Positions 44,391 through 50,372 of a stretch of DNA of 64,000 nucleotides are shown one piece after another. Origin of the DNA: Fistulifera solaris (Eukaryota); assembly GCA_030295235.1 (NCBI GenBank), contig AP026126.1, positions 1,922,001 to 1,986,000 on the forward strand. Reading direction: 5' to 3'. The first letter of the stretch is position 1. Each line of letters opens with the position of its first letter. The notes beneath the pieces are model-generated. The model saw only the letters and a program-made list of their open reading frames with translations, had not been told where the DNA came from and searched no databases. A program made the position numbers and the translations under genes.

Positions 44391-44992
44391 TTACACACGA
44401 AAGCTTTTTATTATTCGGCTCGTTTCTCGTTTCGCCTCTCGCTCTTTAATTGCAGCTCTCTTGTCTCTCACATTCTTCCCTCGACATAGAGCCACCTGTA
44501 TTTTGACTCGGTTGTCGTCATTGAAATACGCTTTGATCGGCACCACAGTCATACCTTGCTGTTCCGTTTGTTGCATAAATTTGCGCGCCTGTTGTCGGTG
44601 AACTAATAAATCGCGTGGTCGTCGTTCCTCGTGTTGGAAATACGCCCCAGCCATGTTGTGTTTACCAATGTGCACATTATACATAACGAGGGATCTTCCA
44701 TTCTTACTCACTCGACAGAACGAATCACGCAAATTCATTTTCCCATCCCGGATAGCTTTGACTTCCGTCCCTTTGAGTGAAACTCCGGCTTCAATCGTTT
44801 CTAGTATTTCATAATTCCGATACGCGATTCGATTCACAGCAATAGTATTGTCTTTCGGTTTCTTCTTTTTGTGCCTGATTTGGCGAGTGCGAGTGCGAAT
44901 GAAGGTCTCTGGGGCGCTGAGGATGGAAGAAAGGCTTCGGAGCATTTGATTGACACTACGAGTAGCACCACGAGCGCACGAGGCCATCGCAT
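44391..44992 (-). CDS. smpB: SsrA (tmRNA)-binding protein SmpB, nucleus-encoded with bipartite plastid presequence
   Basis: IAVNRIAYRNYEILETIEAGVSLKGTEVKAIR, RPRDLLVHR and GKNVRDKRAAIKERE. The presequence MRWPRALVVLLVVSIKCSEA-FLP is joined by a 1-nt poly-A slip near 44868. Confidence 0.92.
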
Positions 44993-45850
44993 GATATCTT
45001 TTTTCTTTGTAGCGACCGTTCTCTTATTCTTGGTACCTTTGCTTTCTCTGTGAACGCCTTTAAAGTTCAAGTTAGGGAACGAGTGGTTAACTTGAAGAGA
45101 AAAAGATGCACATCAACGCACCAAACGAGATGAATGATGGTTGCAAGGAATGCCATCGCGCATGCGGGGGAAAGTTTTTGTTTGTTTGGATACTTACCTG
45201 GTACCTGTTATACGACTACATCATACACAACACAATTATTAGGCTTGTGAAGTTTTGAGATTAATGCTTCAATACCTGGTCGACAAGGAAAATTTACTTC
45301 ACGACTGAAATTCAGTCCTGAAGAAAGGTCGCCTACACGTTGAACGAGACTAATTTCAAATGTGGACCATACCGATCAGTTTTGGACGTCGACCATCAAG
45401 CTGTGTTTCATTATGACATGTAGTAGCGTTGATAGCTAATTAAAGAATGACAATTCGACTGCTTGCTTACTTTGTACTAGGGAAATCTACCATCGCGGAT
45501 ATGTGCGACACATAAAAACGAGCAATAAACTGTTTGCCCTGAAAGTGGACTTCGGCCCACGTCTCAGTCTGTCCTTCTTCGGGGCGCACATTGCTTTTCT
45601 CGCATCCCTCGAATTTATTGATGATGACGTCAATACTCAATACCCGTAGCTGGTACGCCAGTCAATTCGTACAGCAAGTACATGTAAAATAGGAAGAAAA
45701 TTCTTTTGGACGAATTGACGAGTTGGCAGTGCTATCATTGTTGTTGCAGTTCTTCTCTCAACCTGGAAAACAGTGCATTTGATCATTATCTCGAGAGACT
45801 TGATAAGAACGTCAAACAGGACATAGTATTGGGTACCAGTCCTTTGTACA

Positions 45851-48422
45851 ATGTTGCCCTTCAAAGCTCGCTGTTCTTATCCTCTGCTTTTCACTGCATT
45901 CATCGTGATACTGGCATCCCATCAAACGAATGGCTTTTTGACGCCTGCAACGACGAAAACATGTCGTAAACAAGAAACTCTAGTGATGCCCTCTTCTAGG
46001 ACAGCATTACTGGGAATTCCCAAAATGTTTCGCTGGCTTACGGATCAATACCCGGATGTTTTGAACCGACAATTGGAGCAAGGTCTCAGTGATGATTTAA
46101 TCGTTGATAACTTCTATTTGGATATGAATGGGATCATCCACCCTTGTACACATGGAAATAATGAAGGAGAAATTGTCATTTTGGATGAAACGGCAATGTT
46201 CAAAAAGATTTTTCTTTATGTTGACCGGTACGTCAAAGACTTTCAAACCGTTGCGCATTTTTTTGAGCCAGTAACTAATTTCTTTTCGTGTTATCTCGCT
46301 TTAGACTTTATAAATTGGTTCAACCGAGTAAGCTTCTGTACTTAGCTGTAGATGGTGTCGCCCCTCGGGCCAAGATGAATCAACAGCGTTCGTAAGTCAA
46401 AATCTGCTACGATAAGCCTAACATGGTACTCCATCTCAGTTCTCACACTATTTATTGACATCAATCGCAATGCAACAGTCGTCGATTCCGAAGTGCCAAA
46501 GAGGCAGAAGCAGCCGCATCCGAGATTCTAGCGCGAGCGCAACAGACGGGAAAGATTCCAGAAGACTGGGAGAATCAAAAACGATTTGATAGTAATTGCA
46601 TCACGCCGGGTACGGATTTTATGTTAAAGTTGTCACTAGCGATGCAAAAATGGGTTGAATTCAAAATGCAGACGGATGAGTTTTGGATCAATGGTGCAGA
46701 TGTAATCATTAGTGGTCCTGATGTGCCCGGCGAAGGTGAACATAAAGTGATGGACTTTTTGAGGGGAAGCGAAAGAGGGGAAGGTGTATTCGAAAGATCT
46801 GTATCAGCCAGATCATACACATGTCTTGTATGGGGTAAGTCGAAAGAAAGGATTCCGGTTGAGTTTCGATCGACGGTGCATTCCCTGTTCTGTCAATGCT
46901 ACAAAGCGCTTAATCAATACTCATTCACACTTCTCTGTTTTCCGAATAGCTCGATGCTGACTTGATCATGGTAAGCATCAAAACGACGCCAATTCGCGAC
47001 TATTTCACATTCGACCAAACGACTCACTGTCTGTCATTATCTGTCGTTGCCTTTGCTTTGTCTTAGCTGGGACTTGCATCGCATGAAAAGAATTTCCTTT
47101 TACTACGCGAAAAGATGAGTGTCGTCATGGCTGGAAGAGGTCGCAACAAGTATCGGAAGCGGAAAGATATGCTGGAATACAATGAAAACGATTTTGAAGT
47201 ACTCGACTTGTCTGGTCTCCGACAAATGTTGGGCTTGCAATTTCGAAAGTATTTGGAAACGGAAAATCTGAAAGTGAAAACGTTCGAGCTCGACCGTATC
47301 ATTGATGACTTCATCTTCATGTGTATGCTTGTCGGTAACGATTTCTTGCCGCACTGTCCTCATTTGGAGATTGATGGAGGTGCTTTATCGCTGATGATGA
47401 ACAATTACATGGATCTTCTTCCTGATTGGGGCGGTTATCTTACAAAGAAAGAGAAACTACACCCGGAACGGTTTGAACAATTTATGTACCATCTCGCTCT
47501 TTATGAGGAAGAACACTTTAGTCGTCGTGGTTACGAGGAAAACGAGGCAGGATGGAAGTTGTCTTCTGAAAACGAAGACGATAAAGATGATTTTTACGGC
47601 AAATTCTATACAGGGAACCCAACCCCTGCTTGTGCACAGGCTGCAAATAGACGCGGTAGCAGCGAGCCGGCACCGGAAGAAATTCCTATGGCCCCCTCGG
47701 GCAATCGAGCATTTCGCCGTAGCCATCCGGACAGCACAAGCCGATCGTACCGTGACTTTTACTACGAGACTAAAATGGGGTGGAAGCCTGAAGACCGCAG
47801 TAGAACACTTTTTCGTCGTCGAGCTCATGTCAGGGATTACATGGAGGGTCTGCACTGGGTTATGAACTATTATCACAATGGGTGCCAATCCTGGGATTAT
47901 TTCTTTCCCCATTTGTACAGTCCCCTGGCGACGGACTTGGTTAACCTAGCTGAATTGTACTCGGAACGCGATGAAGACGGATTCTGTGCGTGGGAGTTCG
48001 AAAAGGGCACTCCATTTCCCTCATTAGCCCAGCTGCTTTCTGTGCTGCCACCGCAATCGGCCGATCTTCTTCCCAAACCTTTGGCGGAACTCATGTTGCA
48101 CCCATCGTCGCCACTGCTCGAGTACTACCCGAGCGATTTCAAGGCAGATGCGAACGGAAAGCGACAATCGTGGGAAGCTGTTGTTCAGATTCCTTTCATC
48201 GATGGCGCTCGTTTGCTCGAAACAGTTCAGCAAATATTAGACGCAGACCAAAACGGACAGAATATCTTGACACCTGGCGAGCGTCGGCGCAATATGCCAG
48301 GTAAAGTACATTACGTTCCTGCTCCTGGCGAGCGCGATCCAAACCGAGGAAGGAAGTTGATAGCAACCAAAAGCAGTCCCAAGCGTCCAAGCTCGAACCG
48401 AAAGTCCAGACAGGTCCGGTAA
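45851..48422 (+). CDS. XRN: XRN-family 5'-3' exoribonuclease with N-terminal signal and transit-like peptide, multi-exon
   Basis: [96 protein letters not shown] and [17 protein letters not shown]. Confidence 0.93.
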
Positions 48423-48648
48423 ATTGTCGCGCACGAGAATTGTCTTGTTTACAAGCGGGTCGACTTTTGCTTTTTTGATTGGCGATATAAATCGTGGGTC
48501 GCTACTAATATCGCATACGCTCAATCCATAAATCACTGACGTCGATGCATGAATGCTGATCTTTTACATTAAAAATTAACTGAGAAGCCCATACTTTACT
48601 AATGAATCTGATTTCAGTGTGTTACAACTCGAACTAGATTCTGCTATA

Positions 48649-50372
48649 TTATAGTTCAACGAGTTCCGTCCCGACATTGTACTCCAAACTTGAAGAAGGA
48701 AAGCCGCTCGAATCGGAACGAATCGATGCCGATTCCGGATCGGTTATTACGACAGGAGCAACAAGCTTTTGCTTTGCCCTCGCTCTGACAAACTTGTCGA
48801 CTCCTGCCAAGGAAGGCGGTTTGCTCGAAGAAATTTTATGCGGAAGCTGTCCTTTTCTAGCGGGATCGTTCGAAATACTCTTGATTTTAGAAGCCAAATC
48901 TCGGCGATTCTTCTGGAAGAGTGGATGATAAAAACAGTCTGTCCCTGTGCCAGAAGTTAGACGAACAAATCCCCAGCTGCCATTGTACACCAGTGAGTTG
49001 AGTGAGCAGTATACAAGCAAGCAACAAATTCTATCACCACGACTACTGACCGATGCAATTTGCGAACAAATGATGAATACTTCGTCGTATGCTTTGCCTC
49101 TTTCCCAAGTACTTGATTCATGAACTTTTCAGGCGACACAATGACGAACGATTTTCCATCGGGAAGCCAACCCACCACATCTTCGTCTCTATTTTCCTGC
49201 ATGGCGCTCATAAGTTTCTCAGGAAAGGATTTGGTTTTGGACGCCTGCGAAGTGTTGTTCGCTGGACGCCTGCTAGGTCTGTTGGGGGCTTTGTCGGACT
49301 CATCGTCTCCGCATTGCAACTCATTCGTGTCACTTAATTTTCCGATATCGGGTAAGGGACGCGAAAGTGGAGAATTGGCGTTTGACAAGAAAGGAGACTG
49401 TATCTGGGGTTGGGGTTCTGGAAAGTTCATGGCCTGTCTTTGAAACTGCTGAAGTTGTAGTTGATTCTGTTGAAGTTGCTGTTGCAATTGCTGCTGTTGC
49501 AATAGCAAGTGTTGCTGCTGTTCGAATTGAAGCTGCTGCTGTTGTTGCTGCTGTTGCAAGAAGAAGGATGGATTGTTGTTGCCGGACAAAAAAGTAGTAT
49601 TTAATTGAGCCCCGTTCAGAAGATTGGCCTCGCCTGCCAATGGCATCGTGGAGAAATTGGAATTGGTTCCGGTATTCAATGCAGAAAACATGCCGCCCAT
49701 ATTCAGACCACCTCCTCCTAGTCCTAGCGACGACGAGTTCGCAAACTGGTGCAAGGCGCTTCCACCCATCATTCCTTGAATTGCCTGCGGCAACAATTGA
49801 TGCTGATTTTGCAGCGTAGCAAAAAGATTTGTGTTGTCATCCATGATGGACTGATGAGCGAAAGGTTGCTGTTGAGGGAAGGACCCTAACATGTTCGTGT
49901 TCATTTGAGAACCGGAGTAAGTAGACTGGGGCCCTCCTAGAATAAACGCAGAATTGCTTCCTGGACCGAAAGATGATACTCCTGCGGCATTCGGGTCTTG
50001 CAATAACGATTCTAAAAGAGAGAAAGAAGAAAAAAGTGTTTGAGACTTATTTGTTGCAAACGTTCACCTCATTGCATTCAATCCATTTGGACTGAAAGCA
50101 CTACGCGTCGAAAAACGTGTTTCTACACAAACGCCTTCTTTTACAGCACAAGAACATGTAGCAATAATGAAAGCACTACGCGTCGAAAAACGTGTTTCTA
50201 CACAAACGCCTTCTTTTACAGCACAAGAACATGTAGCAATAACGAAGTGCAATGACAAGAAAGTCAACAGCAACTTACGATCGTAACGTATCCCATTATG
50301 CTGATGCAGAAGATCATTATTGTTGACGTTATTCACGCCATCATCTTGCAACGAGAAGCTAGGAAATGCCAT
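48649..50372 (-). CDS. HSF-type transcription factor with long Q-rich N-terminus and C-terminal DNA-binding domain
   Basis: SFPEKLM..VVGWLPDGKSFVIV..KYSSFVRKLHR|WGFVRL..FYHPLFQK. Exon 1 is inferred as MAFPSFSLQ..RYD, with an intron at 50012-50278. Confidence 0.85.
50093..50242. repeat. Perfect 75-bp tandem duplication inside an intron
   Basis: TGAAAGCACTACGCGTCG...CATGTAGCAATAA occurs at 50093-50167 and again at 50168-50242. Confidence 0.95.

Follow-up and report, generated by a model that had tools for sequence, protein, structure and literature searches.

A short XRN-type exoribonuclease gene with a predicted plastid presequence in the diatom Fistulifera solaris

Plastid RNA decay is viewed as a process of the bacterial type, based on RNase E/J and PNPase, and what is known of it comes almost wholly from plants and green algae. 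The locus described here raises the question of whether a eukaryotic 5'-3' exoribonuclease of the XRN family may also act inside a plastid. The following stretch of DNA has been used for the analysis and is called the window: 64,000 nucleotides of Fistulifera solaris, corresponding to positions 1,922,001 to 1,986,000 of contig AP026126.1 (assembly GCA_030295235.1), read on the forward strand. All coordinates given below are positions in the window, and features of the gene are listed in Table 1.

Structure, start and reading frame of the gene

A gene of five exons on the forward strand (45851-48422) encodes a short XRN of 731 amino acids. An earlier note on this DNA, made from the sequence alone, had ended the gene at 48422, in agreement with the stop codon identified here; the four introns and the exon-3 frameshift were not mentioned in it. 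The ATG at 45851 is the first one following a stop in the ORF listing of the window. Since an in-frame TAG can be read from the sequence 8 codons 5' of this ATG, no further upstream extension of the frame is possible within exon 1.

Four GT..AG introns were predicted first, and all four were then found as joints in contigs of the runs X2-X4, where a variant joint of intron 4 (46970/47068) with one other letter was also present. The runs X1-X4 are public sequencing runs labelled as RNA only by guess, and we infer their RNA nature from the spliced joints in X2-X4. Contigs extend in the 5' direction to 45894, which lies within the signal-peptide codons and upstream of Met46. No contig spanning the ATG at 45851 was seen in any run that also shows splicing, and the region upstream of 45870, which is without cover in X2-X4, was left out as evidence. 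In the public model of the gene, translation starts from an internal Met, so that the presequence is concealed and targeting surveys based on such models would overlook it.

In the window, exon 3 contains a +1 frameshift in the run of G at 46763-46766, and the joined exons amount to 2197 nt (1 modulo 3). This frame-breaking extra G is what would be expected of a decaying copy with a real frameshift, only the other homeolog being functional; this explanation, even when taken together with the one that the upstream part of the frame is a chance extension, is hardly probable at all. The extra G is absent at full depth in all four runs (X1-X4), every covering contig omitting one base at 46763, and one of the contigs lacking it differs at just one other position in 224 nt. 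In the public Fistulifera solaris protein P0412 the frame is intact, with 671/671 comparable residues identical and Arg-Glu at the frameshift site. Because the four runs and P0412 lack the extra G, the frame break is attributed to an assembly or variant indel and not to a dead gene. In this raphid pennate diatom, the locus is a nuclear gene that is both intact and expressed.

An intron of about 17 nt, considered as the cause of the frame change in exon 3 or as a junction before GIPK, was rejected because it would be too short and the joints show neither. The divergently oriented neighbour encodes SmpB, the tmRNA-binding protein. As context outside the XRN gene, an ORF with a signal peptide followed by Phe (MRWPRALVVLLVVSIKCSEA, then FLPSS) was observed in another frame over the 5' end of SmpB.

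Table 1. Coordinates of the XRN gene features and of the neighbouring gene in the window
Feature	Position	Strand	Evidence
SmpB (tmRNA-binding protein), divergently oriented neighbour	44391..44992	-	Pfam SmpB, E 4.1e-48
In-frame TAG stop	45824..45826	+	bounds the N-terminus within exon 1
Predicted signal peptide, residues 1-28	45851..45934	+	translation, heuristic test, AF2 helix
Phe29, +1 after predicted cleavage	45935..45937	+	alignment and signal-peptide test of relatives
Transit-peptide-like region, residues 29-54	45935..46012	+	composition, low AF2 pLDDT
Remainder of exon 1, start of XRN catalytic core with first catalytic Asp	46013..46227	+	Pfam, PDB alignments
Intron 1, GT..AG, 77 nt	46228..46304	+	joint 46226/46304 (cut +1), X2 and X3 contigs
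Exon 2, second catalytic Asp and part of 5'-phosphate pocket	46305..46391	+	prediction, alignment
Intron 2, GT..AG, 87 nt	46392..46478	+	joint 46391/46479, X2 and X3
Exon 3 (RRFRSAKE ... HTHVLYG), with extra G in run 46763-46766	46479..46834	+	Pfam, contigs
Intron 3, GT..AG, 115 nt	46835..46949	+	joint 46833/46949 (cut +1), X2, X3 and X4
Exon 4, 21 nt (LDADLIM), two catalytic Asp	46950..46970	+	prediction, contigs, alignment
Intron 4, GT..AG, 96 nt	46971..47066	+	joint 46969/47066 (cut +1), X2 and X4
Exon 5, main part, rest of catalytic core including VGNDFLPH, and XRN_M helical domain	47067..48323	+	Pfam, AF2, Foldseek
C-terminal tail beginning at about residue 700, basic and disordered; TAA 48420-48422	48324..48422	+	sequence, AF2

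XRN domains and catalytic residues

XRN_N (PF03159) was detected by Pfam in exon 1 (E 3.2e-16) and exon 3 (E 5.1e-26), and XRN_M/helical (PF17846) in exon 5 (E 3e-80), all above the curated cut-offs. Positions 1-76 of the XRN_N profile align to residues 54-125, and positions 107-198 to exon 3. Position 1 of the profile thus corresponds to residue 54, where Leu is found instead of the Met of XRNs, and residue 1 of the PDB XRN chains was aligned to the same query residue in 10 of the 14 matched; the best PDB sequence match was human XRN1 9e70 (E 2.1e-125). These results agree with the earlier description of an XRN motif near residue 55 that is not preceded by Met. The start typical of XRNs, Met-Gly-(Ile/Val)-Pro, was found in 131 XRNs of the comparison set and is absent from the precursor, in which 53 residues precede the domain. 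The canonical free N-terminus could be regained through removal of the presequence. Removing the first four residues reduces XRN activity (PMC9512700).

Seven acidic residues (D91, D142, E240, E242, D275, D277 and D372) as well as K149, Q153, R156 and R157, all in P0411 numbering, are invariant in an alignment of 58 sequences and align with the same motifs of human XRN1. We take the former to be the catalytic residues and the latter to be those of the 5'-phosphate pocket. The AF2 model has a pLDDT of 87.3 and a pTM of 0.86 and is confident to about residue 700, while pLDDT drops to 48-64 over the final 40 residues. In the Foldseek search, all the matches listed at ranks 1-24 were XRN1, XRN2 or Rat1 chains, with 5fir at the top (E 6e-42); the four best reached target-normalised TM-scores of 0.77-0.84, and distant matches to FEN1/Exo1 were also given. 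No Xrn1 D1-D4 C-terminal domains were found after the core, since the protein stops at residue 731 with a disordered tail. In these respects, the statements of the earlier note that all acidic catalytic motifs are present and that the long Xrn1 C-terminal domains are missing were correct. Judged from the sequence and the model, the enzyme looks catalytically complete.

Presequence and predicted destination of the enzyme

Residues 1-28 have the properties of a signal peptide, with a best 8-residue Kyte-Doolittle mean of 2.96, Thr at -3 and Gly at -1 of a predicted cleavage site at residue 29; the cut would fall after TNG and leave Phe29 at +1. In the AF2 model of the homeolog, residues 10-26 are helical and residues 25-53 have pLDDT below 50. 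Residues 29-54 contain 31% Ser+Thr and one acidic residue and have a net charge of +3. In all of the 32 aligned full-length diatom orthologs, the aligned +1 Phe is invariant, and an ASAFAP-like motif is kept lineage-wide.

Of the 105 relatives having at least 30 upstream residues, 95 showed a signal peptide with Phe behind it in a home-made heuristic; of 105 shuffled presequences, 13.2 passed on average and at most 22, and of the XRNs of canonical start 0/131. The region after the Phe has median contents of 24% (Ser+Thr) and 4% (Asp+Glu) in these 95 proteins and is net positive in 87 of them. The presequence label was found in Tribonema, Ectocarpus, Chrysoparadoxa, a pelagophyte, Heterosigma and a clade including the chrysophytes Epipyxis and Dinobryon; a part of the labelled sequences are MMETSP transcripts marked "type:complete". 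An open stretch of 54 codons alone would have a probability of about 0.07 ((61/64)^54), which is the point in favour of a chance extension, but the conservation of the presequence is far above that of the shuffles.

Among haptophytes, 4 of 13 extended relatives passed the strict Phe test and 11 of 13 passed when F/W/Y/L was allowed, while 8 of 21 models start near MGVPK; for this group, plastid targeting is suggested only. The homeologs differ at 9 of 54 presequence residues and at 12 of 675 mature residues. The presequence changes faster between them yet retains its features.

The N-terminal extension therefore has, at the level of sequence, all features of a diatom bipartite plastid presequence, a conclusion that we regard as supported. 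The signal peptide, the Phe and the Thr/Ser-rich basic stretch had all been described in the earlier note, and the extension is kept in the orthologs and across ochrophyte classes.

As to the compartment, the parts of PMC12136025 consulted give Phe (or Trp/Tyr/Leu) at +1 as the rule for plastid transit peptides and describe periplastid presequences as lacking Phe or a similar residue there, although the two kinds are otherwise closely alike. This close likeness is one reason to consider that the XRN stays in the periplastid compartment, the relic red-algal cytoplasm, with its ancestral cytosolic role on some RNA there. We regard this as unlikely, because the +1 Phe is present and conserved (32/32 diatom orthologs and 95/105 relatives), whereas the periplastid reference set is without it in the same parts of PMC12136025. 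For this reason the stroma is preferred.

The signal peptide might also work alone and yield an ER-lumenal, vacuolar or secreted nuclease, as its clear hydrophobic stretch and plausible cleavage site would allow. Against this stand the conserved +1 Phe, the acid-poor positive Ser/Thr stretch (87/95) and the ASAFAP-like motif, which are specific to plastid import. In addition, XRNs are Mg-dependent enzymes of reducing compartments, and we consider this destination very unlikely.

Dual localisation is a further alternative: translation from a downstream site (Met46 of MPSSR, or a Met before GIPK elsewhere) would give a shorter form that acts in the cytosol or nucleus. In its favour, Met46 occurs in both homeologs, and a Met stands directly before GIPK in 21 of 126 motif-bearing family proteins, e.g. 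of Ectocarpus, Tribonema and Heterosigma. Most diatom orthologs, however, have F, Y, H, N or L instead of Met at or near the site, and the stretch from 45851 to Met46 contains two short ORFs, ATGGCTTTTTGA and ATGTCGTAA, that begin with an ATG in another frame. If translation began at the next Met (MFRW), GIPK would be lost, and XRN activity falls when the first four residues are deleted (PMC9512700). The probability of such a second form is accordingly rated as low.

Origin, proposed role and comparison with known systems

In the tree, ochrophyte proteins bearing the presequence form one clade (25 rows, support 100/99), whose sister is a clade of red-algal short XRNs (11 rows, 99/91); both together have a support of 99/96 and are split from the Xrn1-like and Xrn2-like rows with 100/100, the Xrn2-like rows forming a separate clade (100/100). 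The XRN is thus placed outside both the Xrn1-like and the Xrn2/Rat1-like groups. The tree was constructed from sampled representatives, with Xrn1 and Xrn2 rows assigned by length and N-terminal motif and with no named stramenopile host XRN, and the sister relation is based on bootstrap and SH-aLRT support. From this tree position, the gene looks like an endosymbiont-type (red-algal) XRN that acquired a presequence, and not like a retargeted host Xrn1 or Xrn2. The earlier note had proposed that a host-type XRN was retargeted to the complex plastid: its targeting part fits the presequence features, and its "host-type" part does not fit a labelled clade that is sister to the red-algal short XRNs.

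A Cannabis match (P0122), which matched in 5 stretches and has a changed first motif, was set aside as an unrelated multi-copy gene model. A metagenome scan gave 13 loci with a best identity of 68%, and the relative of 96% identity was not among them; these loci were left out of the further analysis.

The same ancestry supplies further points for the periplastid compartment. Red-algal members begin with MGIPK without a presequence and are presumably cytosolic or nuclear, and a presequence is also missing from a Cryptomonas "dhm exonuclease" and four similar proteins. The share of FYMINK, the residues that A+T-rich genomes favour, is 0.35-0.40 in these five, compared with 0.16-0.30 in the other groups, as would be the case for nucleomorph genes, and the label "dhm" is, we assume, one used in nucleomorph annotation. 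On the other side, we know of no nucleomorph and no RNA in the periplastid compartment of diatoms. It may be added as a counterpoint that, by ancestry, a family whose red-algal members have no presequence would be expected to have gone initially to the periplastid compartment and not to the stroma.

Routing into the plastid stroma of a red-algal-type short XRN, made as a precursor with a bipartite presequence, is the explanation that we consider probable; we infer its compartment, processing sites, activity and substrates from the sequence features. The endosymbiont-type XRN, from the short-XRN family of red algae and algae with red-type plastids, would have gained the presequence. The signal peptide (1-28) would bring the precursor to the ER, where signal peptidase would cleave after TNG, and the exposed Phe29 together with the Ser/Thr-rich basic stretch (29-54) would direct the crossing of the inner membranes to the stroma. 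A processing peptidase may then cut near the conserved junction at which S-T-A-L-(F/L) precedes GIPK, freeing the N-terminal helix needed by XRNs. The mature enzyme would work in the 5'-3' direction on plastid RNA that carries a 5'-monophosphate, degrading or trimming it once an endonuclease has cut or the 5' end has been dephosphorylated. XRNs require 5'-monophosphate ends and primary plastid transcripts bear triphosphates, so that such an upstream step would be required before XRN action.

A longer history can be proposed only tentatively, and we hold it to be somewhat doubtful. The endosymbiont's cytosolic XRN may have survived the secondary endosymbiosis and may still serve the nucleomorph/periplastid compartment of cryptophytes, while in the ancestors of ochrophytes, and perhaps of haptophytes, its gene may have moved to the host nucleus, the product being rerouted across one more pair of membranes to the stroma, by gain of the +1 Phe, after loss of the nucleomorph. 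There, a nuclease of eukaryotic mRNA decay would degrade bacterial-type plastid transcripts from 5' to 3' and mature their 5' ends, either alongside RNase J or in its place.

The literature searched contained no account of an XRN in plastids or chloroplasts, which accords with the earlier remark that such a route was not known to have been described. The XRN phylogeny in the parts of PMC5862402 covered does not include plastid forms. The words exonuclease, exoribonuclease, ribonuclease and RNase have 0 occurrences in the main text of PMC5462543, whose list of 770 conserved plastid proteins might hold the family, and exoribonuclease, XRN and exonuclease have 0 occurrences in 8 supplement files of PMC4329603. 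The same searches turned up nothing on RNase J in diatoms or red algae and no characterised short XRN of red algae or Cryptomonas, and a nucleomorph origin of the "dhm exonuclease" found no confirmation in either PMC6461891 or PMC6559170. The presence of the label on relatives across brown-lineage algae suggests that their chloroplasts use a previously undescribed RNA-decay enzyme.

If this is true, red-type complex plastids (those of diatoms, brown algae, chrysophytes, pelagophytes and probably haptophytes) adopted a eukaryotic 5'-3' exoribonuclease, and plastid RNA turnover in much of the marine phytoplankton would depend partly on eukaryotic machinery. The reading of transcript 5' ends, half-lives and the "caps" formed by RNA-binding proteins in these plastids would change, and plastid RNA decay could be open to regulators of XRNs, e.g. 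the inhibitor 3'-phosphoadenosine 5'-phosphate. The enzyme would also be a clean example of a cytosolic endosymbiont protein that was re-addressed to the interior of an organelle.

Comparison with known enzymes places the diatom XRN near several of them. With Xrn1/Pacman/Kem1 (human XRN1 9e70 and Drosophila 2y35) it shares XRN_N and XRN_M, the acidic residues, the phosphate pocket, Lys at position 5 (GIPK) and a short spacing to the DNFYLDMNG motif, and the Foldseek target-normalised TM-score against 9e70 is 0.84. Unlike Xrn1, it has a 53-residue presequence and no Met1, and its 731 aa are without D1-D4, whereas Xrn1-like rows have 1400-1900 aa. Xrn2/Rat1 (C. elegans 5fir, C. thermophilum 7opk and S. 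pombe 3fqd) is similar in catalytic fold and core size, but the long insert seen in 8jch_M ("5'-3' exoribonuclease 2") between helix 1 and the first catalytic motif is absent from the diatom XRN. Xrn2/Rat1 works in the nucleus, with Rai1 or PAXT-1 as its partner.

The closest non-ochrophyte relatives are the short XRNs of red algae (Cyanidium, Galdieria, Porphyridium, Pyropia, Gracilariopsis and Compsopogon) and the Cryptomonas "dhm exonuclease", which have 540-800 aa and 46-50% identity to the ochrophyte query P0125. Unlike the diatom XRN, they begin with MGIPK or MGVPK and, since a presequence is missing, are presumably proteins of the cytosol or nucleus, or else of the nucleomorph compartment. 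RNase J, which occurs in bacteria and, as RNJ, in plant chloroplasts, belongs to the metallo-beta-lactamase/beta-CASP enzymes, and XRN has a PIN/FEN-like fold. In the parts of PMC3799425 and PMC7154860 consulted, RNase J is the enzyme known to degrade chloroplast RNA exonucleolytically from 5' to 3' and to mature its 5' ends. The task of the diatom XRN would be analogous and its fold unrelated, RNase J being of bacterial and XRN of eukaryotic origin.

Gene model, transcripts and neighbours of the XRN locus

The XRN open reading frame begins on the forward strand at ATG 45851, eight codons downstream of an in-frame TAG (45824-45826), and the exon borders of its split coding region were set by motif continuity. 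The joined exons comprise 2197 nt, one nt in excess, and the frame changes at a G run (46763-46766); the product length of 731 aa is counted with two X at the frameshift site. Position 1 of the Pfam XRN_N profile falls on residue 54, which is Leu instead of the usual Met, and the XRN core does lie behind an N-terminal extension with no Met directly in front, as the earlier note had described.

Exons of the XRN gene in the window
Feature	Positions	Strand	Basis	Remark
Exon 1	45851-46227	+	motif continuity	
Exon 2	46305-46391	+	motif continuity	
Exon 3	46479-46834	+	motif continuity	holds the frame change
Exon 4	46950-46970	+	motif continuity	
Exon 5	47067-48422	+	motif continuity	carries XRN_M

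The locus is present in four public sequencing runs of one study (X1-X4), whose type is only a guess. When 45300-48700 was compared, contigs of X2, X3 and X4 had GT..AG joints at exactly the four predicted introns, and therefore these contigs derive from spliced RNA. Contigs that match the window at every position span 45894-46120 (X4) and 45931-46126 (X3), and the 5' ends of both lie within the signal-peptide codons, upstream of Met46, the internal Met of MPSSR. Every contig across 46763, in all four runs, omits one base there, which restores the reading frame; the extra G of the window's GGGG run is absent from the four read sets and from the public protein. The assembly behind the window may contain small indel errors, at this G run and perhaps also at the 5' end of the neighbouring SmpB gene (44834-44992), so that reads should be consulted for other apparent frameshifts before the gene concerned is taken to be disrupted.

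The runs contain the window form of the locus and a second form diverged by about 6% (19 differences in 298 nt, 47114-47411), which correspond to two homeologous Fistulifera solaris proteins, P0412 (window copy) and P0411, linked to the exon-5 cluster by exact look-up. P0412 (673 aa) agrees with the window protein wherever the two can be compared (671/671 residues) and has R-E at the frame break; its public model takes the internal Met of K-MFRW as its start and so is missing the presequence as well as the four residues that open the XRN core. P0411 (731 aa), annotated with the presequence, shares 708 of 731 residues with the window protein. The copies differ at 9 of 54 presequence residues versus 12 of 675 in the mature part, and both have retained the hydrophobic core, the TNG/ANG↓F site (arrow, predicted cleavage) and the presequence reading frame. 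Many database relatives likewise begin at MFRW, shortened at the internal Met; because the presequence is absent from such models, targeting surveys based on them would miss the family.

Some 860 bp away from the XRN start lies a divergently oriented gene for the tmRNA-binding protein SmpB (44391-44992, minus strand; Pfam E 4.1e-48). From ATG 44992, in another frame, runs a 52-aa ORF, MRWPRALVVLLVVSIKCSEA↓FLPSS..., in which Phe once more comes directly after a signal peptide; this ORF is not in register with that of SmpB. Judged from sequence, the probable explanation is a plastid-targeted SmpB with a 5' part that an assembly indel has disrupted or that contains a small intron; in that case, the head-to-head pair would consist of two genes for plastid RNA handling. 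A downstream ORF (48957-49904, minus strand) encodes a Gln-rich low-complexity protein unrelated to the XRN finding.

Conservation of the presequence

At E <= 0.001, a search with exon 5 gave 682 relatives out of 6426 candidates. The top 120 of these are diatom-type with 58-96% identity, the named genera being Mayamaea, Cylindrotheca, Seminavis, Nitzschia, Pseudo-nitzschia and Amphora. Diatom-type relatives with a complete N-terminus have a signal peptide, xxA↓F(A/V/T)P, a Ser/Thr-rich stretch and the XRN core, and none of them starts with MGIPK. All aligned full-length orthologs (32/32) have Phe in the column that follows the signal peptide.

A home-made signal-peptide test (Phe at 11-50, small residues at -1/-3, an upstream 8-residue hydrophobic window of at least 1.6) was applied to a pool of 126 proteins with GIPK[LM]FRW[LI] in the first 200 residues, 105 of which, including the window protein and one unrelated long protein, begin with Met and at least 30 upstream residues. 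The test was passed by 95 of the 105, or by 99 when F/W/Y/L was accepted; shuffled presequences (200 shuffles) passed in 13.2 cases on average and 22 of 105 at most, and XRNs with the canonical MG[IV]P start in 0 of 131. Among the ten misses, P0104, P0277, P0324 and P0347 have a visibly shortened or partial N-terminus, two Ectocarpus models have PACA↓F past position 50, P0052 has SSA↓FAP after a weak hydrophobic core, P0289 and P0366 show no such Phe site, and P0163 is an unrelated protein. The stretch after Phe, 40 residues long at the median, contains 24% Ser+Thr and 4% Asp+Glu (medians) and is net positive in 87/95. By these counts, the extension that the earlier note saw in the window protein is shared by its full-length diatom orthologs. 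Met directly before GIPK is kept in 21/126, including brown algae, Tribonema and Heterosigma.

Enzyme core, family and tree position

XRN_M was detected with Pfam E 3e-80. When compared with PDB sequences, P0411 matched human XRN1 (9e70) at E 2.1e-125, and residue 1 of the PDB XRN chains aligned with query residue 54 in 10/14 chains. Seven acidic active-site residues and the phosphate-pocket residues K149, Q153, R156 and R157 do not vary among 58 aligned family sequences; the acidic motifs listed in the earlier note are indeed all present. The AlphaFold2 model of P0411 (mean pLDDT 87.3, pTM 0.86) consists of a helix at 10-26, a low-confidence part at 25-53, a confident core from ~55 to ~700 and a basic disordered tail. 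Among the Foldseek matches listed, ranks 1-24 are XRN2, XRN1 and Rat1 only (target-normalised TM-score up to 0.84), followed by distant FEN1/Exo1. As the earlier note had said, the 731-aa window protein has no Xrn1-type C-terminal region, and from sequence and model it looks like a catalytically complete short XRN.

When 1.84 billion representatives were searched with a profile built from the 32 orthologs, a small high-scoring set (574-1438 bits) stood apart from long Xrn1-like/Xrn2-like proteins starting MG[VI]P, which scored next at ~530 bits. Together with two further searches, the high scorers delimit a family of short XRNs of ~540-840 aa.

Members of the short-XRN family
Group	Members	N-terminus
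Ochrophytes	Tribonema, Ectocarpus, Chrysoparadoxa, Pelagophyceae sp. CCMP2097, Heterosigma, chrysophyte clade (with Epipyxis and Dinobryon), centric and pennate diatoms	signal peptide and Phe in most full-length models
Ochrophyte exceptions	Epipyxis, Dinobryon (chrysophytes), Undaria, Phaeomonas, Tetraparma	models beginning at or close to GIPK/MFRW, or without the motif
Red algae	Cyanidium, Galdieria, Porphyridium, Pyropia, Agarophyton, Gracilariopsis, Purpureofilum, Compsopogon	MGIPK start, no extension
Chromerid	Vitrella	model begins MGIPK
Haptophyte-type	Prymnesium, Diacronema, Isochrysis	mixed; 13/21 with an extension of at least 30 residues
Cryptomonad-like	Cryptomonas "dhm exonuclease" and four similar proteins	no extension; A+T-type amino-acid bias

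Four of the 13 extended haptophyte-type members pass the Phe test, and 11 do so when F/W/Y/L is accepted. A SAP domain (PF02037) is found in the haptophyte-type P0416, P0420 and P0425, and ...ELVERLRA... in the C-terminal tail of P0416 and P0420 is consistent with a SAP motif there; no SAP fusion was seen in diatom or red-algal members.

Trees were built on the core only, with presequences and far C-termini removed and columns at least 50% filled, and the quick 85-row tree agreed with the careful 54-row tree (IQ-TREE, LG+C20 PMSF, ultrafast bootstrap/SH-aLRT). The root was assumed among Xrn1/Xrn2, whose rows are representatives classed by length and N-terminal motif, none of them a named host-type stramenopile XRN. 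The short family is split from these rows at 100/100, with a haptophyte-type pair as its earliest branch. The presequence-bearing ochrophytes and Vitrella form a clade (25 rows, 100/99) whose sister clade is of red-algal type (11 rows, 99/91); the joint node has 99/96. In a quick LG+G4 tree with added haptophyte and cryptomonad-like rows, the ochrophyte clade was kept (99), and the cryptomonad-like rows fell within an unresolved group with red algae. The window XRN is part of an uncharacterised red-lineage short-XRN family, by core sequence in neither the Xrn1 nor the Xrn2 subfamily. A presequence-bearing clade, of the sort that the earlier note had proposed to look for, was recovered, with Vitrella inside it. 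Plastid targeting of the window XRN is well supported in silico; the "host-type" origin proposed for it is contradicted by this tree.

Proposed route and comparison with known systems

By established targeting rules, the protein would enter the ER co-translationally and the signal peptide would be cleaved after TNG. The exposed Phe29 would then take the protein on into the stroma instead of leaving it in the periplastid compartment; PMC12136025 describes the +1 Phe as the feature that most clearly tells plastid from periplastid presequences and states that one exchange retargets a protein. The transit peptide would be removed near the conserved S-T-A-L-(F/L)↓G-I-P-K junction (32-ortholog consensus). 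Translation from the internal MFRW Met, the start of the public model, would give a product without GIPK, and removal of the first four residues lowers XRN activity (PMC9512700). Since there is no Met before GIPK in the diatom copies, these appear committed to the processed organellar form; the kept Met of brown algae, Tribonema and Heterosigma could in principle give a second protein form. The substrate would be 5'-monophosphorylated plastid RNA, because the phosphate pocket is intact. We consider it fairly probable that the window protein is a stromal XRN.

No description of a plastid XRN was found in the literature searched, and the earlier note knew of none for such a route; the supplements of PMC4329603 contain no exoribonuclease, XRN or exonuclease terms; large predicted-proteome tables may list the family. 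Neither the enzyme family nor the targeting system is new; their combination, its breadth and the red-algal affinity appear undescribed. The catalytic core would work as in Xrn1 and Xrn2, but the window XRN falls outside both subfamilies. In plant chloroplasts, 5'-3' RNA decay and 5'-end maturation are ascribed to RNase J (PMC3799425, PMC7154860), and the window XRN would presumably do the same job.
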